From contig CAJWLU010000002.1 in the NCBI GenBank assembly GCA_913043225.1, positions 224,001 through 288,000 on the forward strand: DNA of 64,000 nt. The letters run 5' to 3'. This document shows, piece by piece, positions 1,531 through 41,366 of the stretch. The translations under genes and the position numbers were made by a program. Every line of letters begins with the position of its first letter. The stretch's first letter is position 1. This stretch comes from an uncultured Acidobacteriota bacterium. Its GTDB lineage: Bacteria; Acidobacteriota; Vicinamibacteria; Vicinamibacterales; UBA8438. The notes beneath the pieces are model-generated. The model saw nothing but the letters and a program-made list of their open reading frames with translations. It had not been told where the DNA came from and did not search any database.

Positions 1531-2511
1531 TTACGGCCAGATTCCGATCTCCTGATAGAAGCGGATGGAGCCGGGGTGAAACTCTGTGCCGCTGTCACGC
1601 ACCACGTTGGCGGCCACGATGGCCCGACCGGCACCGTGGCGCTCCACCACGCTGGCCGCGTTCTCGTAGAGCGTCTTCGTGACGTTGTAGACCAATTCCT
1701 CGTCGGCGTTTGACGAGGTGATTAGGTGCATCGACCCGACGTCGAGTCCCTCGAACGCCTCGTTCTGGCCGCGGTAGGTGTCGGCTGGGATCGTCGCCGG
1801 GCGGAAGAACAGATACTCGTCGATCAGTCCCTGCTTGGCGGTCTCGTCGAAGGGAATGAAGTGGATGTCCTGCGACGCCGACGCCTGGGTGATGGCCGGG
1901 TTGGGAATCGCGCCGCCCACGAACACTGCCGCCGCCGAACCGTCGGCCAGCAGGTCGACGGCCCCGGACTGGGTGGCATTGACCGGGTCGAAATCGTCGT
2001 AGGTGATGCCATGCGCGCCGAGCAGCGGACGGATGAAGTACTCGAAGCCAGCTCCTGCCACGCCGACGCCGACACGTTCACCGCGCAGATCCGCCATCGT
2101 CTCGACACCCGAGTCGGTCGGCGTGATCCAGAGCGCGACATTGGGCGCCAGCGTCATCACCGTGCGCATCGGGTAGGCCTGGTCCCAGCCCTCGGTGCCA
2201 CGCACGGCGAAGTAGGTGATGGCGGCGTTCGATAGAGCGAAATCGAGCTCGCCGCTCACTAGTCGACGGATGTTCTCCTGCGAGCCGCTGGTCGCCTCAG
2301 CGGTGGTGTTCCAGCCAAAGCCGGCGCCGAACTCGTTCATGACCTCGGCCAGCGCGCTCCCGAAGACGAAGAAGGTCCCGCCCGGGGGCGCGGTGCCCAT
2401 ACTCACGAAGACCCGCGACGGCGCGTCATCGTTACCGCCACCGTCCCCGCCGCCGCACGCGACGGCGGTCGCGGCGAGAGTGAGCGCTATACAAAACCCA
2501 AGTCGACGCAT
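1531..2511 (-). CDS. TAXI-family TRAP solute-binding lipoprotein
   Basis: Lipobox (AVAC), GTAPPGGTFF, ATSGSQENI, DLRGERVGVG, C-terminal FHPGSIRFYQE; AGGAG upstream of the ATG. Confidence 0.92.
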   Translation of the reverse strand: MRRLGFCIALTLAATAVACGGGDGGGNDDAPSRVFVSMGTAPPGGTFFVFGSALAEVMNEFGAGFGWNTTAEATSGSQENIRRLVSGELDFALSNAAITYFAVRGTEGWDQAYPMRTVMTLAPNVALWITPTDSGVETMADLRGERVGVGVAGAGFEYFIRPLLGAHGITYDDFDPVNATQSGAVDLLADGSAAAVFVGGAIPNPAITQASASQDIHFIPFDETAKQGLIDEYLFFRPATIPADTYRGQNEAFEGLDVGSMHLITSSNADEELVYNVTKTLYENAASVVERHGAGRAIVAANVVRDSGTEFHPGSIRFYQEIGIWP

Positions 2512-2664: not shown

Positions 2665-3019
2665 CGGTCCGAAGATGGAGAGCAGGTGTCCGTCTAGATC
2701 CCGGAAGTTGGCGGCCTACTGGTCACGTTTCGTGGTGCGGCGAGAAATTCGATGCCGCGGGCCGAGAGTGTCACTTGGGCTTGGTTAACGTCGTCGACCA
2801 CGAACACGATTTCCGTGTCGTGTGCGACCGGCTCGGAGAGTTTGGCGTGCGCCGTGCTCAGCGTCAGCGTGATCCCGCCATTACCAAGAAACACGGACCC
2901 CTCGCGTTCTGAGACTGCATCGCACGATCGAGCGTTTCGACGTAGAAGTCGACCGACCGGACCAGGTCCGTCGTGCCCAGCATGACCTTCGAGACACCCT
3001 TGAGCTTGACGTTAGTCAT
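2665..3019 (-). pseudogene. VOC/glyoxalase-family gene, frameshifted
   Basis: ATG 3019 overlaps the upstream stop (GATGACTAA). Three frames join up: MTNVKLKGVSKVMLGTTDLVRSVDFYVETL / EGSVFLGNGGITLTL...EIVFVVDDVNQA...LSARGIEF / DQ*AANFRDLDGHLLSIFGP. Two frameshifts (about 2900 and 2722) plus a TAG at 2716-2718. Confidence 0.8.
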
Positions 3020-4334
3020 CGGCCGAATCCTTCACCACGAACCGCCGCGATTTCAGTTCGAATCGAGGCAGCGTACCCGCGTCGACGGCGCACACGGGCA
3101 CGGTCAGACCGAGTGCCTCCTGCACCACCTGACCGACCCTGGCGGCGACCGTCTCTGGTTCGCCCGTCGTCGGCGCAACCTCGACTTCGATCGACAGCTC
3201 GTGGAGCGGACTCGTGGCGTTCACGGTCGAGCGGAATTCGGTCACTTGGGTTACCTGTCGAACTAGCGCTTCGATCGCAACCGGATAGACGTTGACTCCT
3301 CGCACACAAACCATGTCGTCCGCGCGTGACAGCACCCCGCCCTCGATCTGGCGGAGTGTACGGCCGCATGTACAGGGCGTCGATCGAAGTCTGACGATGT
3401 CCCTGGTGCGGTAGCGAATGACGGGGCTGGCGATGCGCCCCAGGTTGGTGACGACGAGCTCCCCTGGCTCGCCCTCCGCCGCTGGCCGGTCCGAGCCGGG
3501 ATCGAGGAGCTCACAGATGAACTGCGTCTCGTTTAGGTGAAGCGCGCCCGGGTGTTCCCAGCACTCGAAGCTCACCGGGCCCACCTCGGTCAGTCCGTGG
3601 TGATCGATCACCCTGGCGCCCCAGCCTTGCTCGATCTGCCAGCGCGTGGCGTCGATGCTGCCGCCTGGTTCTCCGGCGACCACGATGGTGCGCACCGTCG
3701 AGATGGGCAGATCTAGGCCCATGGCCCGCGCCACCTCGAGAAGACGGAGCGCATAGGTGGGGGTGCAGCAGACGACCTCGGGAGCCACCGCGTCGAGGAG
3801 CTTGAGCCTGGTCTCGCTCGACATGCCTCCCGCCGGCACGACTCGGGCCCCGAGCTGAGTCGCCGCGTCGAAGGCCGACCAGAACCCGAGGAACGGTCCG
3901 AAGCCGAACGGGAACAGGATAGTGTCGCCAATCCCGATGCGGGCGGCGTGGAACACCGAACGCCAGCAGTCGGCGACCCAGCGCCAGCTCTCCGGAGTGT
4001 CGAGCCAGCGGAGCGGCGGGCCGGTGGTGGACGAAGTTTGGTGATAGCGGGTGTAGCGGGTCAGCGGTTCGGTGTGCGCGGTGCCCCAAGGAGGCGTGGC
4101 TGCCTGGTCCGATGCGAGCTCCTGCTTCGTGGTTAGGGGAAGCCGCGCCAGGTCTTCCAGGGTACGGATCTCGCTGAGATTGACCCCAGCGGACAGGAAT
4201 TTCTCCGTATAGAAGCGATTCGTGCCGTCCACTGCACCGAGTAGCTCCGTCAGTCGGACGAACTGCTGGTGCCGACGTTCGTCACTCGAGAGGCACTCCG
4301 ACGGGGGCGGTGCCCACCGCGGGTCGCCCGTCAT
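3012..4334 (-). CDS. Phenylacetate-CoA ligase (PaaK)-like aryl-CoA ligase
   Basis: LPLTTKQEL, P-loop QTSSTTG, CTPTYAL, AGEPGG, HHGLTEVG, GELVVTNL, IRYRTRD, RADDMVCVRGVNVYP, LPRFELKSRR. Confidence 0.88.
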   Translation of the reverse strand: MTGDPRWAPPPSECLSSDERRHQQFVRLTELLGAVDGTNRFYTEKFLSAGVNLSEIRTLEDLARLPLTTKQELASDQAATPPWGTAHTEPLTRYTRYHQTSSTTGPPLRWLDTPESWRWVADCWRSVFHAARIGIGDTILFPFGFGPFLGFWSAFDAATQLGARVVPAGGMSSETRLKLLDAVAPEVVCCTPTYALRLLEVARAMGLDLPISTVRTIVVAGEPGGSIDATRWQIEQGWGARVIDHHGLTEVGPVSFECWEHPGALHLNETQFICELLDPGSDRPAAEGEPGELVVTNLGRIASPVIRYRTRDIVRLRSTPCTCGRTLRQIEGGVLSRADDMVCVRGVNVYPVAIEALVRQVTQVTEFRSTVNATSPLHELSIEVEVAPTTGEPETVAARVGQVVQEALGLTVPVCAVDAGTLPRFELKSRRFVVKDSADD

Positions 4335-4765
4335 AACGACCCTGCTCCCGGTGCTTCCGTGAAGCGCTCGGCGATTTCGGCCGGGATGGGCGTGCCCCGC
4401 ATCGGCTCACCGGGCACTTTGGTGACGCAAGCGATGGTGAGGGCGCCTCTCGCCACGGTATCTCCTGCCGACTTGATCTCGGCGGTGTAGGAGAGGCTCT
4501 TCCCCGACTTCCGCGCGATCCTGAGCACAACCTCGAACTCGTCCTCAAAGCGCAGCGGTCTCAAGAACTCGAAATTCGTGGCGACCCGAGGGAATCCGAT
4601 GCGGGCCGAGGGCGGCGCGATGCTCAGACCGGCTTTCCGCCACATGGCGTGTTCGGCTTCCTCCATGTACCGAAAGAACACGCTGAAGTGGACGATGCCG
4701 GCGGTGTCGGTCTCGTAGAACTGAACGCGACGCTTGAGGCGGAACTCGCTGATCGGAGTAAACAT
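4331..4765 (-). CDS. Hotdog-fold acyl-CoA thioesterase (4HBT/YbgC family)
   Basis: RRVQFYETDTAGIVHFSVFFRYMEEAE with the catalytic Asp; EFLRPLRFEDE. Likely start ATG 4765 (ORF track extends to 4795). Stop overlaps the next start (ATGA). Confidence 0.88.
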   Translation of the reverse strand: MFTPISEFRLKRRVQFYETDTAGIVHFSVFFRYMEEAEHAMWRKAGLSIAPPSARIGFPRVATNFEFLRPLRFEDEFEVVLRIARKSGKSLSYTAEIKSAGDTVARGALTIACVTKVPGEPMRGTPIPAEIAERFTEAPGAGSL

Positions 4766-4791
4766 GGCAGGGGTTTGACCACTCCCGCCTC

Positions 4792-6045
4792 TCAACTCGC
4801 CACCGGGGCCGGACGCGGGCCGCCCTGCGCCAGGTAGCTGTTCATCGCCTCGAACAGCGGTTGCAGGTCCTTGTAGACGTTTCCGACCAGAGCATCGACA
4901 AGTTGCGGCTGCAGATCTGGGTGCTCGCTAACAAACTCGCCGAAGTTGAAGGTCCGGTCGTAGAACGCCATGACCAAGTGCCGGAAGCTGTCCAGGCCGT
5001 GCCGCACGTCCCGTGTGTAGCTCTCGAATGCGGCGGCAGACACATCACCCTGATCGAGCGCCGTATGGATGGCGTCGGCCGCAAGTTCGCCCCCTTTGAG
5101 CGCGAGAAAGACACCGGATGAAAAGACGGGATCCAGGAACGAGAAGGCGTCACCGACCAGCACGAAGCCGTCGCCGGCCGCCTGGGTGGCCCGATAGCTA
5201 AACTCTCCGGTGACCCGCATCGGTCCCAGATAGGTGCCAGGCGTGATGTGGTCCTTGATCCAGGAGCATCCATTGGCCTCGCGGCAGAAGATCTCTTCAG
5301 GGTCGCGGCTGTTGCGATAGAGATATTCGTGATCCGCGACCAGGCCGACGCTTACGGTATCGTCCGCCAACGGGATGTACCAGAACCACCCTTTGTCGGC
5401 GATGTAGGCCACCGTCGTAGCGCCTTCGTCCAGTCCGGGGTCCCGTTTGGCGCCCTTGAAGTAGGTGAAGATTGCCAGCTTCTTGAGGTCAGGGTCTCGT
5501 CGTTTCCACCCCAGGCGGCTCGCTAGTAGGGTGTCGCGTCCGGTGGCGTCGACGACCACCTTTGATGACAGCTCCTCGGTTGTGTTGCCCGACTGCGCCG
5601 TGACGCCGACGACCTGGTTGCCGTCTCGAATGATGTCTTGCACCCGAACGCCCTCGCGCACCTCAACGCCGTGCGACGCGGCGTTCTCCAGCATCATCCG
5701 GTCGAAGTCGCTGCGCAGGATCTGCCAGGTGCTCGCGCATTCGTGCTCGATTGTTTGGAAGAAGTAGAACGGCTGACTGACCTTGCCCGAGGTCGACACG
5801 AACTGGACACTGTGTTTGAGCGGGCTCCCCGAGGTCTTCAGCCAGTCGAGTACCCCGAGGCGCTCGAAGCTGAACCAGGTGTAGGGCATCAGCGATTCAC
5901 CGATGTGATGCCTGGGGAACTGTTCCCGCTCGAGCAGGAGCACCCTGCGCCCGTGCTGCGCCAGCACTGTCGCCGTGGCCGCCCCGGCCGGTCCTCCGCC
6001 AGCCACGACCGCATCCCAGGTTCCGTTCGTGCTCATGCCGCTCAC
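4792..6045 (-). CDS. Flavin-dependent halogenase-like FAD oxidoreductase
   Basis: GGGPAG FAD motif, FPRHHIGESL, conserved Lys in SPLKHS, RSDFD, VDATGR, WFWYIP (WxWxIP), GDA followed by FLDPVFSSG (Fx.Px.Sx.G). Confidence 0.82.
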   Translation of the reverse strand: MSGMSTNGTWDAVVAGGGPAGAATATVLAQHGRRVLLLEREQFPRHHIGESLMPYTWFSFERLGVLDWLKTSGSPLKHSVQFVSTSGKVSQPFYFFQTIEHECASTWQILRSDFDRMMLENAASHGVEVREGVRVQDIIRDGNQVVGVTAQSGNTTEELSSKVVVDATGRDTLLASRLGWKRRDPDLKKLAIFTYFKGAKRDPGLDEGATTVAYIADKGWFWYIPLADDTVSVGLVADHEYLYRNSRDPEEIFCREANGCSWIKDHITPGTYLGPMRVTGEFSYRATQAAGDGFVLVGDAFSFLDPVFSSGVFLALKGGELAADAIHTALDQGDVSAAAFESYTRDVRHGLDSFRHLVMAFYDRTFNFGEFVSEHPDLQPQLVDALVGNVYKDLQPLFEAMNSYLAQGGPRPAPVAS

Positions 6046-6046: not shown

Positions 6047-6628
6047 TCACACGAGTGGCAACACCTCGACGATGTCGCCGACTTTCCGACCCCCGCTCGC
6101 CATCTCCGTGCGGCGCCCGTAGAGCGTCCGTGACTCGCGCATCCAGAACACTCCCATCATCTCCGGGTTCGGTTCAAGAGCGAGGAACGCCTTCGCATGG
6201 CTGTCGTAGTTGAATCGCCTCTCGCGGAGCAGCCGCCCGAGAGGCACCTCGTTGCGCAGAATCTGCTGGGTCAGTTTCGTGCCGAACGCGTCCAGCTTGA
6301 TCCGGATTGCGCCCATCTCTACCGGTCGCCCCGTGTACTCCTGCACCAGTAGCACCCGCCTGAAATACCACCCGCCAAGCGTGAACGTGCCGAGTGCGCG
6401 GAGCACGACCCGTCCCCCGTAGTGGTGCTCCAGCCGGCTGGTCATATCCTCTCCATGGACCAGCAACGAATGATACGGGGCCGGGATTTGCTCCGGCGTG
6501 ACGATCTTCCAAATCGGCATTTCGATACCGGCGCGACCATAGACCTTGTCCAGCGGATACAGTGTGCCGCTGACTGATGACCGTTTCTTCGGCATGGTGT
6601 GGAGCCGTCGGACCGAAGAACTCGTCAT
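6047..6628 (-). CDS. Chorismate pyruvate-lyase (UbiC)-fold protein
   Basis: Motifs colinear with E. coli UbiC as recalled: LLVHGEDMTSRLE ~ LLLEDSMTKRFE; FRRVLL ~ LREILL; VPLGRLL ~ TPLGRYL; LYGRRT ~ LWGRRS; IVEVLP ~ LTELFLP. Confidence 0.65.
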   Translation of the reverse strand: MTSSSVRRLHTMPKKRSSVSGTLYPLDKVYGRAGIEMPIWKIVTPEQIPAPYHSLLVHGEDMTSRLEHHYGGRVVLRALGTFTLGGWYFRRVLLVQEYTGRPVEMGAIRIKLDAFGTKLTQQILRNEVPLGRLLRERRFNYDSHAKAFLALEPNPEMMGVFWMRESRTLYGRRTEMASGGRKVGDIVEVLPLV

Positions 6629-6667: not shown

Positions 6668-7999
6668 CTAGGTGTACCTAATCTTCGTGTGCTCTGGCAG
6701 GAAGAAGCGTGGCAGCAGACTGTCGACTCGGAGCAATCCGGCTCTCGTTAGTGCGACCTGTTCGCCGTCGGCTGCTAGCAAATAGCCGTCTCTACGCAGC
6801 GACGTGAGCGGCTCGCCGAAGCGTTCGATCACGTCGACGCCGTACTTCTGTCTGAAGGAGCCTGGCTGGATCGAGCCGAGCTTGAGCTGGAGCACAAACT
6901 CCCGGATTAAACGCTCTTCGTCGGTCGGTCTGAACGCCCGGTTGAGCGGTAGCTTCCCGCCCTGGACGGCTGCGGCATAGGGTCCCCACGTGTCGAGGTT
7001 CTGCATATGCACGCCGTTGACGTGCCCAAACGACGCTACCCCGAGCGCCGCGAGATCAGCCCCACGCCACAGTTGGTCTCGATAGACGAACCTGGTCCGA
7101 TCCGGTTGCTTGACTGCGGTGTAAGCGCTCCCGACGGTGTAGCCTGCTGCTTCGAGCGCGGCGAACGCCTCATCCACCCAGCGCCGCTTGGTATCCCAGT
7201 CGGCTACCCGTTCGGCGAACTGCCCGGTGCCCTGCAGCAGGTCGCTGCTGATTGTCGTGTTGTAGGGCAGCTCCATCTGATAGATGGTCACGCTGTCCGG
7301 GCTCATGTCGATGGTGCGCGCGACGGCGTTGCGCCACCGTTCGTCGGTGTCGCCCAGCATCCCGGCGATGAGGTCGATGTTGATCTGCGGAAAGTCGAGC
7401 GACTGCGCGAACCCGTAGGCACGAAAGATTTCGGCCGACCGGTGGGCACGTCCGTTCAGTTCGAGGACCTCGTCGTCGAAGTGTTCGAGGCCCAGGCTGA
7501 GCCGGGTGATGCCCATGTCGCGAATCTGGGCCAGCTTCGGTTCGGTCAGTGTTCCCGGCTCGCACTCGAACGTGATCTCCTCGGCGCTCGTCCATGGCGT
7601 CACGGCGGTGAGCCGGTCCACCAGGCTCTGCAGTTGCTTGACGGAGAGAAACGACGGGGTGCCGCCCCCGAAGTACACGAAGTTCAACGGGCGGCCGGCG
7701 ATGGCCGGTTGAGTGGCATAGAGCTCCCATTCGCGTGCCACCACATCGAGATACTCCGCGACCTCGCTGGCGTTCTTGTCGGTGTACACCCGGTAGTAGC
7801 AGAAGTGGCACCGTTTTCGGCAGAACGGAATATGGAGATAGAGGCCGAGCGGGACCTCGGCTGGAGGCTGGTTCAGGGCCGGCCGCGCCTCGGACTCCAC
7901 TGCCTCGTGTGTCCAGAGTGAGAAAGGTGGGTAGTTGGCGACGAAGTAGCTGCCGACTTCGGTGGAATCTGCCGGGCGGGTCGGTGAGGTGTCGCTCAT
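6668..7999 (-). CDS. HemN-like radical SAM enzyme (coproporphyrinogen III oxidase family; not true HemN or HemW)
   Basis: LYLHIPFCRKRCHFC (CxxxCxxC), YFGGGTPS, FECEP, RLSLG, NIDLIAG and a HemN_C-like C-terminus. Confidence 0.9.
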   Translation of the reverse strand: MSDTSPTRPADSTEVGSYFVANYPPFSLWTHEAVESEARPALNQPPAEVPLGLYLHIPFCRKRCHFCYYRVYTDKNASEVAEYLDVVAREWELYATQPAIAGRPLNFVYFGGGTPSFLSVKQLQSLVDRLTAVTPWTSAEEITFECEPGTLTEPKLAQIRDMGITRLSLGLEHFDDEVLELNGRAHRSAEIFRAYGFAQSLDFPQINIDLIAGMLGDTDERWRNAVARTIDMSPDSVTIYQMELPYNTTISSDLLQGTGQFAERVADWDTKRRWVDEAFAALEAAGYTVGSAYTAVKQPDRTRFVYRDQLWRGADLAALGVASFGHVNGVHMQNLDTWGPYAAAVQGGKLPLNRAFRPTDEERLIREFVLQLKLGSIQPGSFRQKYGVDVIERFGEPLTSLRRDGYLLAADGEQVALTRAGLLRVDSLLPRFFLPEHTKIRYT

Positions 8000-8051: not shown

Positions 8052-9185
8052 CTAGCCGAAGCAATACAGCACGCCGTCGCCGGACCCGATTACCAACTTG
8101 CCCTCGGCGATCGCCGGCGACGCTACTAGCGGGGCGGCGGTATCGAACTCCCACAGTTTCTCTCCGCTCTCGAGATCTAGGACATAGAGACGTCCGTCGC
8201 TCGAGCCGGCATAGACGCGGTCGCCGCTGGCCGCTGGAGACGAGTCCACTCTGGCGCGGGTCGTGAACGTCCACTTCGCTTCGCCAGTCGCCTCGTCGAT
8301 GGCGTGGACCATCTTGTCCCGCCCACCGACGACGATGGTCCCGTCGATGGCTAGGGCCGAGGAGTAGTAAGGGAAGTGGCGACGCGGATGTTCGTATCGC
8401 CACAGCAGTTCGTGGGTTTTGAGATCGAGACCAATTACTTCGTTGTCGTAGGTGCCGAAGAAGACCTTGCCGTCGCTGATGACCGGTGACGCGATAGTAT
8501 AGGCGCCCGCCGAGACTGCCACCACCTCCTCACCATCGCTGACCCGCACGCCGTGGAAGATCTCGTCGCATCCCCCGAAGTAGGCGATACCGTCGTGCAC
8601 GGCGGGTGTGGCGTGCACGTAGTTCGCAGTCTCGTACTGCCAGGTCATCGAGCCGTCTTCTATGGCAAGCGAGTAGAGGAACCCGTCGTAGGAGCCGATC
8701 ATGACGTGGTCGCCCACGATGACCGGTGACGACTTGATTTCGCCGAGCGTCTCGTAGGTCCAGCGCGCCTCGCCGGTCTGGACGTCGATGGCGTGGAACA
8801 CCCCTCCCAGGTCGCCGATGAACACCAAGCCGTCAGCCACCGCTGGCGATGATTCACCGATGCCCATGTCGCCGGTGGAATAGGTCCACTTCTCCTCTCC
8901 CGACTCGAGGTCAAGCGCCACTACTGTGCCCGCCCAGGTGCCAAAGTAGACGGTGCCGTCGACGATGGCCGCTGACGAATCGATGGCTTCGTCAGCCTCA
9001 TACGTCCACTGCAGCGTGAGCTCGGCCGGCAGCGTGGAGCCGGAGACACCGGTGAGAGAGGTATTGCCCCGGAACTGTGGCCAGGCGTCTGGGGAAGTGG
9101 TGGTGGGCCCCTGGGCTCCCAGAGGGCTGACGAGCCCGAGCGCCCCGAGGGTAAGTGCTGCGAAGGCCGTAACTAGAACGCGCAT
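8052..9185 (-). CDS. Secreted PQQ-binding-like (BamB-like) beta-propeller protein
   Basis: Signal peptide [17 protein letters not shown]..., WPQFRG, about 8 repeats of SSPxxxDGxVY/F...ALDxxxGExxW. The start overlaps the ADH 3' end by 13 nt. Confidence 0.88.
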
Positions 9186-10363
9186 CGGTATACCTCCAAA
9201 GCGTGCGCTGCGGTGAGCGGCCGCGGATTGAACGTGCCGGTCCACTGCTGGGCGGCATCCTCGGCCAGGACTGGGAGCGCGTTTTGCTCCACCCCTTCCG
9301 GTCCGAGGCGGGCTGGCAGTCCGCCGAGCGTGGCCAGCGTGCGCAGTCGCTCAGCGAGCCGTGCGCTGGCCTGTTCACTGTTGGCGGCGTCCACGAGACG
9401 CGCATACAGTGCTCCCGCGGTCTCGCCGTTCCAGCGAACCACATGTGGAAGCAGAATACCTAACGCGACGCCGTGGGTCATCCCGTAGCGGGCGGTCAGG
9501 GGGTTGGCCAGGGCGTGGGCGGCGCCCAGCATCGACTGCTCGATGGCCCAGCCGGCGTGGAATGCCCCCAGTTGCATGGCGGCGCGGGCCTCTATGTCGT
9601 CGGGCGTTGTCAGCACTCGCTCATAGGCGCCTTCGAGCAGTCGCCAAGCCTCGCGTGCCAGCGCCTCTGAGAGCACAGTGCCTCGCGTAGTCACCGCGGT
9701 CTCGACTGCGTGGGCGATTGCGTCGAATCCTGACGTCGCAGTCACCCTGGCAGGTTGCGACAGGGTCAATGACGGATCCAGTAGTGCGACGCGGAAAGCG
9801 GCCTTAGGGTCGCCGCAGGCCATCTTGAGGTGCGTGGTCGCGTCGGCGATGACGGCGTAGCTCTGTGCCTCGCTGCCTGTTCCGGCCGTGGTTGGTACCC
9901 CGATCATCGGCAGCATTGGTCGGTTCGCCTTACCGTAGCCCCGGTAGTCGGACATCGCGCCGCCGTTGCTGAGTAGGAAGTTGATCCCCTTGGCACAGTC
10001 CATGGAACTGCCGCCACCAAGCCCCACGATCCCATCAATCCCCAGGGGGTGGGCCAGCGCGCACCCTGCCTCGACCATCGCGGTGTCGGGATTGACGTCG
10101 AACTCGTGGAACCGGTTCACCGTGAGTCCCGCATCACTGAGCAGCCGCTCGGCGACCGCCACGTGACCCGCGTCGACCAGTCCCTGGTCGGCGACCAGGA
10201 GCGGCCGCTGGAATCCCAATTCTGCCGCGACTGTACCGAGGCGCTCCATCACGCCTGCCCCGAACAGCAGTCGCGTTCGCGGTTCGAATTCGAAGGCCGT
10301 CGAGACTGGCCGTGGGCTATCGGTCAGCGCGTCTGACGCCAGGGGGTCGCTGGTAGCGGCCAT
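9173..10363 (-). CDS. Iron-containing alcohol dehydrogenase
   Basis: [21 protein letters not shown], metal ligands DAIAH, AAHALA, HGVA; C-terminal NPR. Start taken as ATG 10363, 16 nt after the TonB receptor stop. Confidence 0.92.
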
Positions 10364-10379
10364 GAGGTGGGGTGTGGGG

Positions 10380-13300
10380 TCAGAACAGCAGCTTGATTCC
10401 AAGCTGCAGTCGGCGTGCCGGCTGAGCCGAGAGAATCTGGCCGAAGGTTGGCGAACCGAGGAAGGCATCGGGCAGGTTGAAATTGGTGCGGTTGAACAGG
10501 TTGAACGCTTCGAGTCGAAGCTGCAGGTCGGTCGATTCGCTCAGGCCGACCCGCTTGAGCAACGCCAGGTTGACGTTGGCGAAGCCGGGGCCATCGAAGC
10601 CGTTGCGCGGACTGTCCCCAAAGGTGCCGAAGGCTGGAAATGCGAACGCGTCGGTGTTGAACCACCCGTCGGGGCTAGGGTTCTCTGCCGCGGCGCTGTC
10701 CACCAGATTCGGGCGGTCGTTGGCGCCAAAGCCGAGAGCCGCGCGTCCGGTGTTGCTGTTGTCGATCTCGGGGAGCAGCGCCACCGTGAAGGGGCTGCCA
10801 CTTTGCGTCGAGATCACCCCCGCCAACTGCCAGTCGCCGAAGACGCTCGCTAGCCCGCCCGTGTCCCCCTGGTTCCGTCCGTAGGGTAGCTCGTAGGCGA
10901 AGCTCACAGATAGGCGGTGGCGGACGTCGAAGTTGGACCGGCTGAACTCGGCGTCCGGATTGTTGCTGTCCTGAGGGAAGTTCGGGTCTCCGGCGCTCGA
11001 GAAGAAATCGGATCCGTCGTCCTCGGACTTGCCGAGCGTGTAGGCGGCCAGTAGGGACAGGCCACTGCGATAGCGCTGTTCACCGGTGATCTGCACTGCG
11101 TGATAGCGTGACCGGCCCCGTGACTCGAGTGACACGATATCTGCAAAGAGCGGGTTGGGACGTAGATTCAGAGGGTTCGGGCTGGCGTCAGCCTGATTGA
11201 TGTCGCGCCCGCGGAGCAGATTGTTCCCGCGCGAGCCGACGTAGGCCATCTCGATCGAGCGCCCTGGTCCGATCTCCTGCTGGACGGTCGCGTTCCAGTG
11301 TTGCAGGTACGGCGTCTCGAGGTCGCGCTGAATCGTTAGCGCCGACGGCGGCAGCGCGAATGGGAAGAAGCTCGGGAACGGATCGAATAACGTGAGCGGG
11401 AGCCCAGGTAGCGGGAAGAACAGGTTGAAGTCAAAAAACGGTGGGTTGAAGTAGAGCCCCTCACCCGGTGCCAGGGCCGCCTGATCGTAGTAGACCCCCC
11501 AGCCGCCGCGGATGATTGTCCGGCCACCGTTGAGGGCCAGCGCGGCGCCCAGCCGCGGCGCCAGGTTGTTACGGTCGGGGTCGTAGCCGGCGCGTGGGAT
11601 GCCGCCGGTGCCCACCGCGACGAGTGAGCCGGTGGCCGGGTCGTAGACATTAGCCCGGTCGTCGGCGTCCACGGCGGGCGAGGCATAGTCGTAACGGAGG
11701 CCGGCCGAGACGGTCAGGTTCGACCCGATCTGGATGTCATCCTGGACGAACAGGTTGTAGCTCGAGGTGCGCAGCTGCTGCGGGTTGTCGAGGCGTGCGC
11801 CGCCGGTTACCAGAGGCAATCCCAGCAGCAGGTCAGCGAGCGCGTTACCGGTGAACGCCATCGGGAACGATGAAAAGGTCAGGAGCCCTCTCGACTGGAC
11901 GTCCCGGAAGGCGTCTTGCTGCGTGAACTGCAGGTCGGCGCCGAATTTGAACAGGTGCGCTCCGCGGGCGTAGGTCAAAGTGTCGAGGACCTGCACCGTG
12001 CCGGTGCTACTGTCCTGCGGATTGTTGTACTCGTCCCCCAGCGGCGAGTAGCCGGTGATCGTGATGAAGCTTAGGCCGTGGTCGCGGACGTTGTCCGAGA
12101 GCTCTGGGAGGCCAAGCGCCTGATTTAGGCTGTTCCCGCTATTTTCGTGGAAGGCGGCGCTCGAGACCCGGGTGTAGCTCACGCGCAGGTCGTTGACGAC
12201 AGACGATGACATGACCCCGGTGAAGCTGCCGAGCACGTTGTGGGCCCGTTGCGGCACGTTCGTGCCGAAGCCCGGTACTTGGCTGAAACCGGGACCCGAG
12301 AACGGCTCGTAAAAGTCACGGTCGGCCACGCTGTAGCGCAGCGTGAGGTTCGACGAAGGTCCGGCCCGGTGGTCGATGCGCGCGTCGAACTGGTCGTTGC
12401 GGTCGGTCAACAACGGCGAGGACACGTAGTTGGCAAATGGCGCGTCGCGGTTCGGGAGAGGATAGAGATTGGCAATCGCTTGCCCGATCGGATTGATGAA
12501 CGGCGCTGGCAGCTGACTGCCGGGGAACGGGAACGGCGTACCGGGCACGAGCGGGGCGGGAAACAGGCTGTCCGAGAAATCGCCCTGGCGCTCGGCTAGG
12601 GTGGGGACGTTGGTCACTCGCGTGATGCTCTCCCGCAGCCGCGTCCCTTCGTAGTCGACGAAGAAGAAGGTCCGATCTTCGATCAGCTTGCCACCGAGTG
12701 AGCCGCCGAACTGGTTCCGTCGGTAGTCTGGGTCCGGCTCGCCCTGGGGAGCATAAAAATTGGAGGCGTTGAGCGAGTCGTGCCGAAAGAACTCATAGAG
12801 GGTACCGTGGAACTGATTGGAGCCAGCCTTGGTGATGACGTTGATCTGCGCGCCGGCGTGTCGGCCGTAGGCGGCGTCGTAGCTGCCGGTCACGACCCGG
12901 AATTCCTCGATCGCGTCGACTGGGGGACGGACCGCCACCGTGTTGAGCTTGGGGTCGACGTTGTAGGCGCCGTCTAGGAGGTACGCGTTCGCCCCTTCCC
13001 GGGCGCCGTTGACGTTGAGCGTGAAGGCACCCCGCACCGAGCCAGCTGAGCCCTGTGCGGCCGTCGTGGTGCCCGGGACGAGCAATGACAGGTCCAGGAA
13101 GTTCCGGCCGTCGAGCGGCAGGCTGGTCACCTGTACGTTGTCGATGACGGTGCTCAGGCCGTGCGCCGCGAACGCCACGGTTGGTTCCCCCGTGACCACA
13201 ACCTCCTCGGAGACCGCGCCGACCTCCAGCGTCAGCTGGAGCTGAAGTTGTTGACCGACCTGCAGGGTCGTCTCGCGGATCAGTCTACGATGTCCGCTGG

Positions 13301-13544
13301 CAGCCGTCTCGACCCGGTAGCGGCCCGGTGCGAGCTGGGACACCGCGAAGCGACCCTGGTCATCGGTCGTCGCGGTACGGGCCAGCGCCGTGGCTTCGTC
13401 GACGACCGTGACGTCGGCGTTTTCTACCCTCGCTCCCGTGGCGTCGGACACCGTGCCGCGGATGACAGCAAGATGGGTCTGTGCCGTTGCGCCGACGCCC
13501 CCAAAAAAGACAAGAGCGGCACCGGCAAGGGTTCGTTCGAACAA
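10380..13544 (-). CDS. TonB-dependent receptor, Oar-like, with N-terminal carboxypeptidase-regulatory-like domain
   Basis: IRGTVSDATGA, LPLDGRNFLDL, DAIEEFRV, TKAGSNQFHG, DRNNLAPRLG, RLEAFNLFN; ends RRLQLGIKLLF with a terminal Phe. Confidence 0.92.
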   Translation of the reverse strand: MFERTLAGAALVFFGGVGATAQTHLAVIRGTVSDATGARVENADVTVVDEATALARTATTDDQGRFAVSQLAPGRYRVETAASGHRRLIRETTLQVGQQLQLQLTLEVGAVSEEVVVTGEPTVAFAAHGLSTVIDNVQVTSLPLDGRNFLDLSLLVPGTTTAAQGSAGSVRGAFTLNVNGAREGANAYLLDGAYNVDPKLNTVAVRPPVDAIEEFRVVTGSYDAAYGRHAGAQINVITKAGSNQFHGTLYEFFRHDSLNASNFYAPQGEPDPDYRRNQFGGSLGGKLIEDRTFFFVDYEGTRLRESITRVTNVPTLAERQGDFSDSLFPAPLVPGTPFPFPGSQLPAPFINPIGQAIANLYPLPNRDAPFANYVSSPLLTDRNDQFDARIDHRAGPSSNLTLRYSVADRDFYEPFSGPGFSQVPGFGTNVPQRAHNVLGSFTGVMSSSVVNDLRVSYTRVSSAAFHENSGNSLNQALGLPELSDNVRDHGLSFITITGYSPLGDEYNNPQDSSTGTVQVLDTLTYARGAHLFKFGADLQFTQQDAFRDVQSRGLLTFSSFPMAFTGNALADLLLGLPLVTGGARLDNPQQLRTSSYNLFVQDDIQIGSNLTVSAGLRYDYASPAVDADDRANVYDPATGSLVAVGTGGIPRAGYDPDRNNLAPRLGAALALNGGRTIIRGGWGVYYDQAALAPGEGLYFNPPFFDFNLFFPLPGLPLTLFDPFPSFFPFALPPSALTIQRDLETPYLQHWNATVQQEIGPGRSIEMAYVGSRGNNLLRGRDINQADASPNPLNLRPNPLFADIVSLESRGRSRYHAVQITGEQRYRSGLSLLAAYTLGKSEDDGSDFFSSAGDPNFPQDSNNPDAEFSRSNFDVRHRLSVSFAYELPYGRNQGDTGGLASVFGDWQLAGVISTQSGSPFTVALLPEIDNSNTGRAALGFGANDRPNLVDSAAAENPSPDGWFNTDAFAFPAFGTFGDSPRNGFDGPGFANVNLALLKRVGLSESTDLQLRLEAFNLFNRTNFNLPDAFLGSPTFGQILSAQPARRLQLGIKLLF

Positions 13545-13669
13545 CTGGGTCTCCTAGTGTCACTGAGGGGCATCTTCGAGTTTCAATGGTAACAGTGAAT
13601 CCAGGGACAGGGCTATTATGGCGGGAGCTGGCGGTGATGGACGTTCGTGGCTGATTCCCCAGGCCCGCT

Positions 13670-14998
13670 ATGTACGAGGATTATTACCGTTTCCGTCGTC
13701 AGCCCTTCAGTCCGACCCCGGACCCAGAGTTCCTGTACAAGAGCGGCTCTCACCAGGAGGCGCTCGAGCAGCTCCTTCGCGGAGTGCGTCGCCGCGAGGG
13801 CATCCTACTGCTCAGCGGTGCCGTCGGGACTGGCAAGACGACCACAACCCGGGCGCTCTTGCAGTTTCTTGACCGTGACGTGTTCACTGCGCTGGTTCTG
13901 AATCCCTTCGTGACGGCGGATGAGCTGCTGCGGGTGCTGCTCCAGGACTTCGGTGTGGTGTCCGACGGGCGTACCCTGCAGGACGCCAGCCGACAGAGTC
14001 TGGTCGAGACCCTCAACCGATTCCTGCTCTCGCTGTCGACCGTTGGGGCGAGCGCGCTAGCCGTGGTCGACGAAGCACAGAACCTGCCGGCTGAGACTCT
14101 CGAGCAGTTGCGGGTGCTGACCACGCTGGAAACCGACCGCCAAAAGCTGTTGCAGATCCTGCTGGTCGGACAGCCGGAGCTGTTGACGGTGCTCGGCAGC
14201 TCCGAGATGCGTCCGCTGAATCAGCGAGTCGCCAGACGGTGCGAGCTCTTTCCTCTCAACCGGGACGAGGTCGAGAAGTACATCGAGTTCCGTATCCGGA
14301 TGGCGCAAGGGGCGTCGGAAACGATGTTCGTCGCACGTGCCATCGATCTCGTGTACCAGCTGAGCGAGGGCGTGCCCCGGAAGATCAACCTGATCTGCGA
14401 TCGGTCGCTCGAGGCTGGGTGCGCCGGGCTCAAGCCAACGATCGACGAGGTCATCGTGGCCAAGGCGGCCGAGGCCCTGGACCTAGCGGGAAGGGTTCCC
14501 ACTCTGGGGAGTGTGTCCCTGCCCACCGTCCGGAGCCCTGGCCGCCTCGGACCACAGACCCGCCGCATGCTGGCGGCAGCGGCGGGTGTGGTCGCCGGTG
14601 TCGGTTTCGCCGTGTTGCTCGCGGTCTACGGTCCAGAGGTCTTGAGCGGCCGCCCGGCCGTGTCGGGGCCCTCCCCCCAGCTGGCCCCCATCGAGTTGCC
14701 CCAGCCGATCGATCTGTCCACCGCGACTGACGCGGTGCTCGACGAGACGTATGTGCTGAGGACCGGCGTCTTCGAGACGACCGAGGCGGCAGAGGCGGGC
14801 GCGGAAATGCTGCGAGATCTCGGAGCGCCTGCGATTCTTGCGCCCGTGACCCTCAATGACGGCACGACGGGCCAGGCCATCTGGATTGGTCCCTACGCTT
14901 CTGAGGCGGATGCCGAGCAGCTCAGGTTGATCGTCACCGACCGGTACGGATTCGGCGACGTTCAGGTGGTTGCCGTGTTACTGCCGGACGCCCAGTAG
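13670..14998 (+). CDS. ExeA/GspA-like AAA ATPase with TM helix and C-terminal SPOR-like domain
   Basis: MYEDYYRFRRQPFSPTPDPEFLY, Walker A GAVGTGKTT, VDEAQNL, LLVGQPEL, GVPRKINLICD; TM near aa 300; IWIGPYASEADAEQL. Confidence 0.88.
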   Translation: MYEDYYRFRRQPFSPTPDPEFLYKSGSHQEALEQLLRGVRRREGILLLSGAVGTGKTTTTRALLQFLDRDVFTALVLNPFVTADELLRVLLQDFGVVSDGRTLQDASRQSLVETLNRFLLSLSTVGASALAVVDEAQNLPAETLEQLRVLTTLETDRQKLLQILLVGQPELLTVLGSSEMRPLNQRVARRCELFPLNRDEVEKYIEFRIRMAQGASETMFVARAIDLVYQLSEGVPRKINLICDRSLEAGCAGLKPTIDEVIVAKAAEALDLAGRVPTLGSVSLPTVRSPGRLGPQTRRMLAAAAGVVAGVGFAVLLAVYGPEVLSGRPAVSGPSPQLAPIELPQPIDLSTATDAVLDETYVLRTGVFETTEAAEAGAEMLRDLGAPAILAPVTLNDGTTGQAIWIGPYASEADAEQLRLIVTDRYGFGDVQVVAVLLPDAQ

Positions 14999-37680: not shown

Positions 37681-39147
37681 CTAGTCGTCCAGCGGCTCGC
37701 CCTGGGCGCCGTCCTGAATGGCCCAGAGACGGTTCCGGGTCAGGATGTACATCACGCCGTCTCGTACCACCGGAGTGCTGTAGACAGACGCGCCCATGTT
37801 GAGCTCGGCCAGTTCTTCCATTTCGCGGCCGGCCCGGAGCACCACGATGTCTCCGTCCTCGTCGCCGAGGAAGACCTTGCCATCCACCACGAAGGGCGAG
37901 CCCCAGACGGCGGCAAAGGCGTCGTAGGTCCAGAACTCCTCCCCGGTGTCCGGATCCAGCGCGTGTAGGAAACCGGAGAGGCTGGAGATGTAGAGGACGC
38001 CGTCGGCGATCGCGGCGGTCGACATCGTGCGGTAGAAGTCCTCACCGTCCCGGCTCCACACCTTATGCGTGTCGGTGACGTCCCCGGTCCCGGTCGCGTC
38101 GATAGCGTAGAAATGTCCGGGCGCTTCCCCGTGTTCCGGGTCCTGTCCCATGCCGATGTACACCCGGTCGTTGTAGATGACCGGTGTGGAGAGGATGTTG
38201 TTGCGGGTGCCGCGGCCGCCCAGAATCCACTCCGAGTCCTTGGGGTTGCCGTCGAACTGCCAGATCTCCTCACCGGTAGCGGCATCCAGTGAATAGACGA
38301 TGCCGTCGCCTCCCGCCACGATGACCTGCTCGCGTCCGGCGATTTCGGCGTAGGCTGGATTGGTCCAGCTGCCGTGCAGCACGCCTTCGCCCACGTCCAC
38401 GTTCTCCCAGATCAGTTCACCCGTGTTCTTGTCGAGCGCGATGATGTGGGGTGAGAACGGCGACGGAATGTTGACGTGTCCTTCGTCAACGCCGTTACTC
38501 GTGACTGTGTAGAGCACGTCCCCGACGATGAGCGGAGAGCCGGTCGCTAGGTTGTGGGGGAAGACATCGAGCTCGCCGATCATGTCGTAGGACCAGAGGA
38601 TGTCTCCGTCGGTCGGGCCGGTGCCCGTCTCGTCCATGAACGGTCCGTCGTTCCCGTTTGCCAGCCCTTCCACGTCGAGGCAGACCACGTGGGCCTGATT
38701 CGACACGTACCAGACCCGATCGCCCTCGATGAAGGCGGTCGAGCAAACGCCCTGCAGCGGCCAGTCGTTCACTCGGCCGGCCGACAGCTTGTCGTGCACC
38801 ATCTGCCAGATGAAGTCGCCCGACGCAGCATCGAAGGCCATGAGCACACCCATGTCACCTTCGTAGGCCGGGTCTCTCACTCCTTCGTTGTTGGTCCCGA
38901 CATAGACCTTTCCGTTAGCGACTGTCGGGCCGCCGTAGGCCTGTGATCCTACCGGCTGGCTCCAGAGAATGTTCGCTCCGGTGCGCGGATCCCAGGTCTC
39001 GGGCACCCCGGTCTCGTCCGAGACCATGTTTCGGGACGGGGTGTTCCCGAACATCCCGACCTCGTCCTGGGCCGCGATGGGTGCGGCTGCTGCCACTACC
39101 GCGAGGATGCCGGCCGCCACTGTTTGTACTGCACGCAATCGAGTCAT
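37681..39147 (-). CDS. Secreted PQQ-binding-like beta-propeller protein
   Basis: Signal peptide; repeats ALDKNTGELIW, SLDAATGEEIW, ALDPDTGEEFW; start overlaps the upstream stop. Confidence 0.85.
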   Translation of the reverse strand: MTRLRAVQTVAAGILAVVAAAAPIAAQDEVGMFGNTPSRNMVSDETGVPETWDPRTGANILWSQPVGSQAYGGPTVANGKVYVGTNNEGVRDPAYEGDMGVLMAFDAASGDFIWQMVHDKLSAGRVNDWPLQGVCSTAFIEGDRVWYVSNQAHVVCLDVEGLANGNDGPFMDETGTGPTDGDILWSYDMIGELDVFPHNLATGSPLIVGDVLYTVTSNGVDEGHVNIPSPFSPHIIALDKNTGELIWENVDVGEGVLHGSWTNPAYAEIAGREQVIVAGGDGIVYSLDAATGEEIWQFDGNPKDSEWILGGRGTRNNILSTPVIYNDRVYIGMGQDPEHGEAPGHFYAIDATGTGDVTDTHKVWSRDGEDFYRTMSTAAIADGVLYISSLSGFLHALDPDTGEEFWTYDAFAAVWGSPFVVDGKVFLGDEDGDIVVLRAGREMEELAELNMGASVYSTPVVRDGVMYILTRNRLWAIQDGAQGEPLDD

Positions 39148-41366
39148 TGGTTCTCCACCACGCTGACGTTGTCGAAGTAGATGTCGATCGGCGAGTAGCC
39201 GATGATACCGGGGCTTCCGGTGTGGTTGGGTACTGGGTCTTCGGCGGTCAGCGTCCAGTCCGAGGGCTCTGAGGCGTCCCGTGGCCAGACCTTGGCCTGC
39301 ACGATGGCTTGGTCGCCTTCGATGTCCACCCGGAGCTTAAGGGTGTACCAAGTGTTCGGTTCCCAAGGGAAGTCGACCTCTTCCTGGATTCTGAGCTCCG
39401 CCGCCCACGACTGGATCATGAGTTTCTGGCGATTACCCTGCAGGTCCATCGTGTAGCCGCTATTGATCAGGCCGATGTCCGGTCGCCGGCGACCCCGCTG
39501 AGTGGCGAACACGTCGGCCTGCACGGTGTAGCCCGACATGCTGGCGGGGCCCATGTAGGTGGCGTGCCGGTGAATGCCGGTGCGGGACGCGCCCTTGCGG
39601 AACACCAGGTTGCCATCGACCTCTTCGACCGCGAGGCTCCCTCCGCCGCCGATCCACTGGGGCGGCCGGCCATTCTCGAAGTTCTCGGACCAGGGGAGTG
39701 GCGCGTAGACCCGCACCTGACCGACGGCGCTCAGTCCGCCCACGGTAGCGGTGACGGTGCCCGCCTGGTTGCTTGCCCGAGCGTCAGTCGACAGTACCCC
39801 GTTGGCCGAGATCGAGCTGCCAGCCAGGTCTTCGAGCGACCAGCTGGCCTCCTGCAGTCCGATGAAGCGCCCGCCCGCGTCGTAGGCCCGTACCTCGAAC
39901 TCGATGCTGTCGCCTCCCGAGGCGATCACTTCGGCCGGTACGACCTGAAGTATGGAAGGCGTGCTCGTGGCGGCAATCTCATCGTCCAGGTCTGGGGCCG
40001 CGCCCGCCCTTGCCGTGAACGGGGTGTCCGGAGCCCCGATCGCGTAGATGCCGGCCTCCGACGTCACGTAGAGTCGTCCGTAGCCGACTGCGAACGAGCC
40101 GTAGACCTCGGCGTAGCGTTCTTCGTCTCGCATCTGCAACTCGTCGTGATCGAGCTCGGTGGCTCCGCTGGGGCCAGGCTGCAAGATGCGCACGTTCCCG
40201 TTGGTTTCGGTGACGAAGAGCTTGCCGTCGGCCCACACCGGCGACGCCTTACCGACGTTGCCGACGCTGGTTTCCCACTGCACGGCGCCGGTGGCCGCGT
40301 CGAGTGAGAACAGGTTGGCCGAGTTGTCGATTACGTAGAGCGAGCCGTCATGCAGCAACGGCGACGAGAACCCGACTGCCATCTCCTCAACCCGCCACTT
40401 CTCGTGTGTCGCGGTCACGTCCCCGGCGCCGGTAGCGTCAATCGCCACCACCCGTCCCATGATGCCGGAGTCGATGTTCTCCTCGCTGTGCGCGACGTAA
40501 ACCGTGTCGTCGACTAGGACGGGCGAGACGTTGATCCCGCGCTTACTGAGGTGGAATTCCCAGACCTTCTCGCCTGTCCGCGCCTTCAGCGCGTAGATCC
40601 GGCCGTCGGCGTTCCCGTCGATCCAGAGCCGCTGACCGTTCACGACGCCGACGATGCCGACTGACTGCGTGTTCATGTCGGCCACGTTGCCGCCAGGCGT
40701 CGAGTGCCACCGGATCTCGCCGGTGAGCTTGTCGAACCCGAAGTAACGGTGACGGGGTGGGCCGCCCAGGTTGCCCCAGGCGCCGCCGATGATGCTGAGC
40801 AGCAGCTGGTCTTCATCGATCAACGGCGTAGTAGTTCGGCCGCCGTAGCCGGAGGCCCGCCCAATTTCCTCGGCCAGCCGCCAGCTCCACACGGTGCTGC
40901 CATCGCGATCGAATACGTTCAGGTAGCCGTCGATATTCATCGCGTAGAGGTAGCCGGTGTCGGGGTCGCCCGTGACACTGCCCCAGCCAACCCGGTTGAA
41001 CGGCACCGTGGTGTTCAGGATGTTGAACTGGTGCTGCCACAGCTTCTCGCCGGTCTCGGCGTTCCAGCAGGCCACAACCTCCTGCTCGTCCACGCCGTCG
41101 CCGGTCCGGCCGTTGGCGCACACCCGGCCGTCGAACACCGCCGGGGTCGAGCGTCCGACCCACTCGTCCTCCCAGACGAGGTTTTCCCCGTCCTGGGACC
41201 AGCTTGACGGAAGTCCGGTCTGGTCCGACACGCCGGTCTGGCTCCGTCCCCGCCAACTCGGCCAGTCTTGGGCGACGGCCGGGAGCGAAAGCCCGAGTAG
41301 CGCCATCAGCAGCGCCGCGGCAACCCGCGTCGTGACGCCGTATGCAGCCCTGGTCATCCGATGCAT
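39144..41366 (-). CDS. Secreted PQQ-binding-like beta-propeller with C-terminal Ig-like and lectin-like beta domains
   Basis: DWPSWRG and propeller repeats, then LQVVPAEV (Ig-like) and WYTLKLRV...KVW...YFDNVSV (jelly-roll-like). Confidence 0.82.
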   Translation of the reverse strand: MHRMTRAAYGVTTRVAAALLMALLGLSLPAVAQDWPSWRGRSQTGVSDQTGLPSSWSQDGENLVWEDEWVGRSTPAVFDGRVCANGRTGDGVDEQEVVACWNAETGEKLWQHQFNILNTTVPFNRVGWGSVTGDPDTGYLYAMNIDGYLNVFDRDGSTVWSWRLAEEIGRASGYGGRTTTPLIDEDQLLLSIIGGAWGNLGGPPRHRYFGFDKLTGEIRWHSTPGGNVADMNTQSVGIVGVVNGQRLWIDGNADGRIYALKARTGEKVWEFHLSKRGINVSPVLVDDTVYVAHSEENIDSGIMGRVVAIDATGAGDVTATHEKWRVEEMAVGFSSPLLHDGSLYVIDNSANLFSLDAATGAVQWETSVGNVGKASPVWADGKLFVTETNGNVRILQPGPSGATELDHDELQMRDEERYAEVYGSFAVGYGRLYVTSEAGIYAIGAPDTPFTARAGAAPDLDDEIAATSTPSILQVVPAEVIASGGDSIEFEVRAYDAGGRFIGLQEASWSLEDLAGSSISANGVLSTDARASNQAGTVTATVGGLSAVGQVRVYAPLPWSENFENGRPPQWIGGGGSLAVEEVDGNLVFRKGASRTGIHRHATYMGPASMSGYTVQADVFATQRGRRRPDIGLINSGYTMDLQGNRQKLMIQSWAAELRIQEEVDFPWEPNTWYTLKLRVDIEGDQAIVQAKVWPRDASEPSDWTLTAEDPVPNHTGSPGIIGYSPIDIYFDNVSVVENQ

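Follow-up and report, generated by a model that had tools for sequence, protein, structure and literature searches.

The gene for a radical SAM protein, P0001, lies on the minus strand of the window, i.e. the whole stretch of 64,000 nucleotides that was analyzed. It is part of a tightly packed run of minus-strand genes, which encode an iron-containing alcohol dehydrogenase (Fe-ADH), a beta-propeller, the radical SAM protein, a chorismate-lyase-fold protein, a flavoenzyme, a thioesterase and a PaaK-like ligase. The intergenic gaps from the propeller through to the ligase are 52, 39, 1, -4 and -4 bp. The genes, and the motifs within P0001, are as follows.

9173..10468 (-), iron-containing alcohol dehydrogenase (Fe-ADH); longest ORF, the true start is possibly further in
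8052..9185 (-), PQQ-like beta-propeller whose N-terminus resembles a signal peptide; the ORF reaches 9245, and the ATG at 9185 was taken
6668..7999 (-), radical SAM gene P0001; single open frame of 443 aa for a HemN-fold, predicted two-SAM protein of its own uncharacterized clade
7925..7948 (-), N-terminal motif YFVANYPP of P0001, aa 18-25, at the position of RYTSYP in HemN
7793..7822 (-), [4Fe-4S] motif CRKRCHFCYY of P0001, aa 60-69, without the fourth Cys of HemN
7067..7087 (-), VYRDQLW of P0001, aa 305-311, at the aligned site of RNFQGY in HemN and HNxxYW in HemW
6047..6628 (-), chorismate-lyase/DUF98/UTRA-fold protein, from structure model matches
4792..6045 (-), flavin-dependent halogenase-like enzyme of the CndH/Bmp2/PltA type
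4331..4795 (-), 4HBT-type hotdog thioesterase (Pfam)
3012..4334 (-), PaaK-like aryl-CoA ligase, below the PaaK, FlxY and BagE cut-offs
1531..2511 (-), TRAP solute-binding protein of the TAXI family, located 500 bp downstream and possibly of the same unit; found in 20/81 loci

The operon propeller matches the Pfam family Beta-prop_ACSF4 with 278.6 bits (cut-off 133). In the beta-alanine-activating enzyme ACSF4 this beta-propeller is joined to an adenylation enzyme. The chorismate-lyase-fold protein has zero Pfam or NCBIfam matches; its structure model best matches DUF98 (2NWI, TM 0.66), while UbiC (1G81, TM 0.53) and UTRA domains, which are non-enzymatic and ligand-binding, match about equally. 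The flavoenzyme is nearest to CndH (E 9.9e-62), Bmp2 and PltA. The motifs WxWxIP and FxxPxxSxG, present in all 101 aligned locus copies, and a Lys aligned to CndH are marks of flavin-dependent halogenases. The operon enzyme has these motifs and is called halogenase-like; both halogenation and hydroxylation are possible reactions.

Among the 80 nearest loci, some of them on short contigs, the flavoenzyme and the thioesterase were each found in 70, the propeller in 41, the ligase in 39, the lyase-fold gene in 19 and the alcohol dehydrogenase in 17. Neighborhood clustering had placed the lyase-fold family in 58 of 81 loci; since this count was inflated by off-frame ORFs, the tblastn value of 19/80 is used. 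Five marine RNA runs contain 0.05-0.12 of the sequence words, and four of them gave low-depth contig pieces; these lie over the genes and equally over the gap preceding the TAXI gene, and are therefore no evidence of expression or habitat.

The region upstream of the operon (window 10380-19529) encodes a TonB-dependent receptor, an ExeA-like ATPase and what reads as a type II topoisomerase B/A pair; this pair is found again in 16-19 of 81 loci, which are all closely related. At 23329-26139 (minus strand) the window encodes a protein of 936 aa, which reads as a fusion of acyl carrier, acyl-AMP ligase and acyltransferase.

Relationship of P0001 to HemN, HemW and other HemN-like proteins

Pfam gave P0001 a Radical_SAM match and a HemN_C score of 23.5 bits, slightly below the cut-off of 24. 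Its AlphaFold model (pLDDT 93.8) matches HemN (1OLT) over the full length with a TM of 0.80, and the next listed match has a TM of 0.38. The model and the fold search find in P0001 the HemN fold with C-terminal domain that class C radical SAM methyltransferases have. Its solved relatives by sequence are HemN and NocN.

The motifs in question had been pointed out in an earlier note on this DNA. YFVANYPP is present in the translation in place of RYTSYPTA; it aligns onto RYTSYP of E. coli HemN, and the corresponding signature is kept in 42/42 core members of the P0001 clade. RNFQGY is absent as claimed, and its place is taken by VYRDQLW (N309-F310-Q311 of E. coli HemN correspond to V305-Y306-R307); an alignment to E. 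coli HemW puts the same segment at the HNxxYW site. The description of the cluster motif stood in part. CRKRCHFCYY is present and the HemN pattern is absent, but the exact FCGC which the note had ascribed to HemN matched only the E. coli protein among five HemN references. What marks HemN in general is the fourth Cys in CxxxCxxCxC, found in 5/5 HemN references and in none of the 42 core members or the 240 listed homologues.

Six signatures of the P0001 clade occur in 41-42 of the 42 core members, in 230-240 of the 240 listed homologues and in zero reference proteins. These values measure conservation and are no independent test, since the signatures were derived from the same members; the motifs of P0001 are nevertheless not due to chance, because all six are conserved across core members and listed homologues.

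A search of NCBIfam matched P0001 to 19 families and missed every curated cut-off. The scores were 165.3 bits for hemN (TIGR00538, cut-off 324.95), 142.9 bits for HemW (TIGR00539, cut-off 205.4), 175 bits for HutW (cut-off 400), 153 for STM4012 (380) and 148 for HemZ (321). GPRYTSYPTA and RNFQGY are given as motifs required for CgdH activity in passages of PMC10320005. Both are present in 5/5 HemN references and in none of the 42 core members or 240 listed homologues, and the same holds for HNxxYW, which all four HemW references have. The six signature motifs of the menaquinone methyltransferase MenK/MqnK (Wilkens 2021, from the table in PMC10320005) were also examined. This enzyme was ruled out on motifs: P0001 has 0/6 signatures, the five specific MKMT motifs being missing, and among the 42 core members the generic motif 1 occurs in 29, motif 3 in 3 and the other four in none.

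In a careful tree of 34 proteins, 11 core members form one clade (support 100/99) within a 16-member family (95/99), which stands apart from HemN (100/100), HemW (97/98), STM4012, HutW and HemZ. The same grouping came out of a quick tree of 98 rows, in which the P0001 clade comprises 43 rows with a support of 97. The deep branches are weak, NosN, TbtI, YtkT, C10P, Jaw5 and MenK were left out, and class C is represented by NocN (in the alignment) and one annotated HutW only. Clustering with bona fide HemN or HemW, on which the earlier note had staked its claim of a distinct clade, was the outcome in neither the 34-protein nor the 98-row tree. With the cut-offs missed, the motifs absent, a separate and well-supported group in both trees and a true HemW elsewhere in the genome, P0001 is a HemN-like protein of its own clade and neither HemN nor HemW.

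A third HemN-like protein is encoded in the same genome (G000:C3:181153-182607; L082:922-2376, minus strand). It has a stretched Cys-x7-Cys-x2-Cys motif, passes no NCBIfam cut-off and sits on a long branch in the tree; its gene is tail to tail with one that reads as a citrate-lyase beta subunit.

The host genome is 96% complete. Its separate HemW scores 279.8 bits, above the cut-off of 205.4, and has the motif HNLKYW. The genome search gave no match to HemF and no HemN or AhbD above cut-off, while HemY, ferrochelatase and a ChdC-like protein were above their cut-offs. The ChdC-like match spans model positions 92-188 only, with no NCBIfam match at 1e-14, and its identity is not firm. Together the three proteins suggest that heme may be made by the coproporphyrin route, i.e. 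without HemN. Near the family members a gene with HemN/HemW motifs was found in one of 118 loci (L239). The second copy of the radical SAM gene that this locus has (L239:3299-8873), together with its flavoenzyme, is situated immediately upstream of a true hemN and a hemY-like gene.

The residues around the second SAM (SAM-II) were compared with the structure of NocN, for which PMC13266988 lists Arg171 as a contact of SAM-I and, as contacts of SAM-II, Tyr34, Tyr96, Arg153, Asp196 and Ser225. In the alignment the five contacts map to Y54, Y109, R166, D209 and T238 of P0001, and Arg171 maps to R184. Each of these six residues, as well as E145, is kept in 42/42 core members; Ser225 is replaced by Thr in the clade and the other four SAM-II contacts are identical. 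The earlier view of a two-SAM enzyme thus agrees with a second-SAM site that is intact by alignment, and the P0001 clade is predicted to keep both SAM sites. Since most of the SAM-II contacts are common to HemN-like proteins including HemW and HemN, they indicate a two-SAM site and are no proof of C1 transfer. Position 109 is Tyr as in NocN and His in 5/5 HemN references; position 172 is Glu in 42/42 core members and Gln in 12/13 references; NocN Arg230 corresponds to Glu in P0001. Clade-specific positions are E172, N182, Q241-x-E243, Y293, R307, W311, K373 and D426.

Distribution of the clade and its gene partners

The homologue search from P0001 gave at least 8,000 candidates. A search from a relative, P0125, gave at least 7,949 clusters (90% identity) at E <= 1e-100 among 8,000 candidates, with Verrucomicrobia labels. 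The expectation that automated tools would misannotate such proteins as heme enzymes was borne out: of the 120 matches listed, 12 have a name, and each of these is annotated as coproporphyrinogen oxidase or 'oxidase family protein'. The best 80 genome loci are nearly all from Acidobacteriota, mostly Vicinamibacterales, and one radical SAM fusion homologue is labeled Planctomycetota.

Among 24 longer homologues, 13 are fused to Fe-ADH and seven to an acyl-CoA ligase. The seven ligase fusions are proteins of a sister subclade and their ligase is FadD-like. In P0123 the radical SAM protein is fused to a chorismate-lyase-fold domain; this is a single sequence and possibly an artefact. A metagenome scan for ligase-radical SAM fusions, with patterns from the ligase half, gave one fusion (L165, 3.2 kb, without the partners) in the best 8 of 80 loci, which were checked. 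Second copies of the radical SAM gene in L238 and L239 likewise adjoin a flavoenzyme. The sister-subclade second copies at L241:8270-10508 and L243:904-3022 are preceded by a gene that reads as a fatty-acid hydroxylase. Transposon data from P. limnophila and V. spinosum, in the sections of PMC10632474 and PMC12283558 available, list VSP_RS17650 as 'hemN, non-essential'; this entry is not tied there to the P0001 clade.

Co-occurrence was counted in 301 Acidobacteriota genomes with author-set thresholds; related genomes are not independent, and kin inflate the counts. Members of the P0001 family (E <= 1e-60) were found in 72 genomes, while 229 have none. The flavoenzyme is present in 67 of the 72 carriers, which ties the radical SAM enzyme to the halogenase-like gene of the operon; five genomes have the radical SAM enzyme only. 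Three have the flavoenzyme only; two of these are weak matches (one in G024) and one genome is 72% complete. An EhpF-like adenylase occurs in 68 carriers (4 enzyme only, 11 EhpF only) and the beta-propeller in 69 (3 enzyme only, 15 propeller only); the same propeller was found in 76/79 EhpF-positive genomes. The PaaK-like ligase was matched in 28 carriers and in five non-carriers, with 44 carriers lacking a match, and the chorismate-lyase-fold gene in 25 carriers and no non-carriers, with 47 carriers lacking a match. These two genes behave as an optional supply arm. A split between genomes that make the compound (chorismate lyase) and genomes that import it (symporter) was rejected: G230, G176, G282, G136 and G186 have both.

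In the 11 genomes that have EhpF and lack the radical SAM enzyme, a flavoenzyme match was found in none and the propeller in all. The radical SAM enzyme therefore behaves, together with the flavoenzyme, as a single addition to a broader base module, with the look of a tailoring unit. Eight of the EhpF-only loci were fetched: six have genes for the EhpF-like adenylase, an aldehyde-dehydrogenase-like (ALDH-like) protein, a GT4 glycosyltransferase, ABC and FtsX, one is without FtsX in the stretch and one has only the first two. L141-L147 show a minimal operon of EhpF-like, ALDH-like, GT4, ABC and FtsX genes without radical SAM or halogenase genes, which reads as a simpler parent-compound system. 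Three genomes of one family (G076, G190 and G240, with loci L244, L123 and L151; 93-98% complete) have the radical SAM enzyme and no flavoenzyme match; they keep the EhpF-like gene and the propeller, and the radical SAM gene is alone in its locus.

In distant Acidobacteriota the radical SAM gene lies within a single cluster of about 13 genes, which adds two propellers, the EhpF-like adenylase, the aldehyde-dehydrogenase-like protein, a TonB receptor, a sodium symporter, GT4 and an ABC/FtsX-like exporter. The cluster adenylase matches EhpF over its whole length (E 2.1e-48) and adjoins the aldehyde-dehydrogenase-like gene. Pieces of this cluster are scattered in the window genome at C2 207-214 kb, on C20 and at 37681-41366 of the window, where two detached propellers lie:

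37681..39147 (-), beta-propeller with 61% identity to the L128 cluster propeller
39144..41366 (-), long beta-propeller with 47% identity to the L128 cluster propeller

Close orthologues of the TonB receptor or the symporter of the larger cluster were not found in the window genome. What the earlier note could not see is that the window operon forms part of a bigger system whose pieces are dispersed.

The window genome (G000, 3.85 Mb) contains about 40 distinct PQQ-like beta-propeller stretches. A PqqC search of the genome gave no match, while the controls likewise gave no signal. The TonB receptor and the sodium symporter, which are added in many clusters, resemble cofactor salvage loci. The radical SAM enzyme might tailor an exported and as yet undescribed small-molecule cofactor or ligand for the expanded secreted PQQ-like propellers of Acidobacteriota, Verrucomicrobiota and Planctomycetota, a proposal that we regard as rather doubtful. 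An aryl compound, reduced and glycosylated, would here come from the base module of EhpF-like adenylase, ALDH-like protein, GT4, ABC/FtsX-like exporter and propeller; its C-methylated, halogenated form would be the work of the radical SAM enzyme with the halogenase.

Proposed function and alternatives

The earlier suggestion of chemistry at an aromatic carbon is close to the reading that we prefer and to which we give an even chance. P0001 would be a class C-type enzyme that places a SAM-derived methylene or methyl group on an sp2 carbon; its substrate would be a small acid, held as the CoA thioester and probably aromatic, and it would act alongside the halogenase-like enzyme, before reduction, glycosylation and export. 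[quoted passage not shown] Addition of a methylene radical to an sp2 carbon is the class C paradigm and is described as common among non-CPO HemN-like enzymes in passages of PMC10114718. By analogy with NosN/NocN and MenK, SAM-I would be cleaved to a 5'-deoxyadenosyl radical, which would remove a hydrogen atom from SAM-II's methyl. The resulting methylene radical would attack an unactivated ring carbon and SAH would depart, leaving a C-methyl or methylene-bridged product.

In the window genome the pathway may begin with hydroxybenzoate from the chorismate-lyase-fold protein, which the PaaK-like ligase would activate as the CoA thioester. The ring would be tailored by the radical SAM enzyme and the flavoenzyme, and the thioesterase would free the tailored acid. 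The EhpF-like adenylase, the aldehyde-dehydrogenase-like protein and Fe-ADH would convert the acid to an alcohol, to which GT4 would add a sugar, and the ABC/FtsX-like exporter would carry the product outward to the secreted beta-propellers. Because only 25 of the 72 carriers have the lyase-fold gene and 28 the PaaK-like ligase, 4-hydroxybenzoate is a reasonable guess as substrate for the window genome only.

Four other activities were weighed against this C1 transfer. P0001 might use the SAM-II methylene radical in the manner of HemN, i.e. for a hydrogen abstraction that oxidatively decarboxylates or desaturates the side chain of a non-porphyrin acid without transfer of carbon. HemN is its best match both in structure (1OLT) and in the profile comparison (280 bits versus 195 bits for NocN), albeit NocN is missing from the fold-search list, so that the fold ranking is no comparison of the two. 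The aromatic residue at the HemN F310 position is kept (Y306, 42/42), and the sister subclade has Gln at the Q311 position in 15/17. Against these points, Y109 is as in NocN and unlike the His of HemN, and the partners activate and reduce a carboxylate instead of removing it; we consider this chemistry unlikely. A tetrapyrrole role, either as an atypical coproporphyrinogen dehydrogenase or as a CgdH2-like heme-binding chaperone that serves, for example, a P450 or other heme protein, seems very improbable to us. The motifs needed for CgdH activity are missing, HemY, ferrochelatase and the ChdC-like protein point to the coproporphyrin route, the genome has its true HemW elsewhere, HemN/HemW-motif genes are near family members at the one locus only, and most genomes of the phylum do without a member. 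This role would account for a genome in which HemF was not matched, HemN and AhbD stayed below cut-off and the ChdC-like match is partial, and for the L239 second copy and flavoenzyme immediately before a true hemN and hemY-like gene. C. jejuni CgdH2 also binds heme though it has no HNxxYW (passages of PMC10320005), and the core of a sponge gene cluster discussed below contains a P450 according to the portion of the preprint used.

Class C-type chemistry might also take place on an acyl-chain alkene, where an enoyl-CoA or lipid would be methylated or undergo a Jaw5-like cyclopropanation; this would yield a modified lipid or glycolipid in place of an aromatic compound. It would suit the GT4 and the FtsX-like exporter of the cluster as well as the seven FadD-like ligase fusions and the two second copies (L241 and L243) that follow a gene reading as a fatty-acid hydroxylase, but those fusions and neighbors belong to the sister subclade, outside the query clade. 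The partners of the query are PaaK-like, EhpF-like, chorismate-lyase-fold and CndH-like proteins, and neighborhood clustering found no recurrent acyl carrier or ketosynthase family, so that we judge lipid chemistry to be quite unlikely. Ring coupling, bridging or expansion toward a larger scaffold has precedents in the NosN-type methylene bridging and the C10P-type adducts known in HemN-like enzymes, and the EhpF relative belongs to a phenazine cluster. It has no direct sequence sign, no conserved C10Q-type SAM-dependent methyltransferase is among the recurring neighbors, and its probability is in our view slight.

Significance and comparison with known systems

Errors in many 'HemN' annotations have been published before; according to passages of PMC10114718, most proteins so annotated are not CPOs. 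The present analysis adds a clade that is very large, clearly delimited and equipped with diagnostic motifs; it occurs in about a quarter of the Acidobacteriota genomes sampled, as well as in Verrucomicrobiota and Planctomycetota. This large, misannotated and uncharacterized HemN-like clade in a conserved orphan pathway is real. Its diagnostic motifs permit re-annotation, by which heme-pathway reconstructions can be corrected for these abundant soil and marine groups, and through the fixed partners, substrate and product become open to direct test. Should the proposed C1 transfer prove right, class C chemistry would gain a new activity, one that acts on a simple aryl thioester and could serve as a catalyst for late-stage C-H methylation, and the clade would mark a widespread unknown, possibly halogenated, metabolite.

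No characterization of the P0001 clade was found in the searched literature, which had subscription journals outside its scope. The passages of one paper retrieved for HemN-like radical SAM proteins and Planctomycetes do not describe it, a paper on HemW (PMC13495026) makes no mention of Acidobacteriota, Verrucomicrobiota or Planctomycetota, and the search found none that joins EhpF with Planctomycetes, or Vicinamibacterales with radical SAM and halogenase.

With E. coli HemN/CgdH (1OLT) P0001 shares the full-length fold, CxxxCxxC, the equivalents of Y56, E145, R184 and D209 and about 24% identity. It differs in the lack of RYTSYPTA, RNFQGY and the fourth Cys, in the exchanges H109 to Y and Q172 to E, in its separate clade and in its location outside heme loci. 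The heme chaperone HemW has the fold and SAM motifs in common with P0001, which lacks HNxxYW, and the host encodes its own HemW. The class C enzymes NosN/NocN (9P2U), MenK/MqnK, TbtI, YtkT/C10P, Jaw5 and ChuW/HutW share with P0001 the HemN fold, the five NocN SAM-II contacts and a small-molecule operon. Unlike these, P0001 is below the HutW cut-off and without the five specific MKMT motifs, does not keep NocN Arg230, and has a locus without peptide, quinone or heme-uptake context.

The cluster adenylase is like EhpF of the Pantoea phenazine cluster (3HGU/3L2K), although no phenazine genes were recognized among the recurring neighbors. A chorismate-lyase-like gene that adjoins a flavin halogenase is also found in baaA-baaB and the bmp clusters. 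For baaA-baaB of Planctomycetales 10988 a halogenated 4-hydroxybenzoate was proposed, without mutant support (bioRxiv 10.1101/723874); in contrast to the P0001 cluster, the passages of this source mention no radical SAM protein and no reduction or export module.

A further resemblance is to connected component A (CC A) of Halo_AMP from sponge Acidobacteriota, whose core is described in parts of a preprint (bioRxiv 10.64898/2026.08.03.742642) as an adenylation enzyme, a flavin halogenase, a radical SAM protein and a P450. YtkN of the yatakemycin cluster is given there as a common best match for the ligases of such clusters. The CC A radical SAMs group with no characterized enzyme, and the same parts give no HemN-family assignment or function for them. 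P450s belong to CC A and none was recognized in the window operon, in a comparison made by description and not by sequence. Both systems share an adenylation enzyme, a flavin halogenase or halogenase-like enzyme and a radical SAM protein as their core, PQQ-like domains are frequent in CC A, and its radical SAMs may be of the same family as the P0001 clade.
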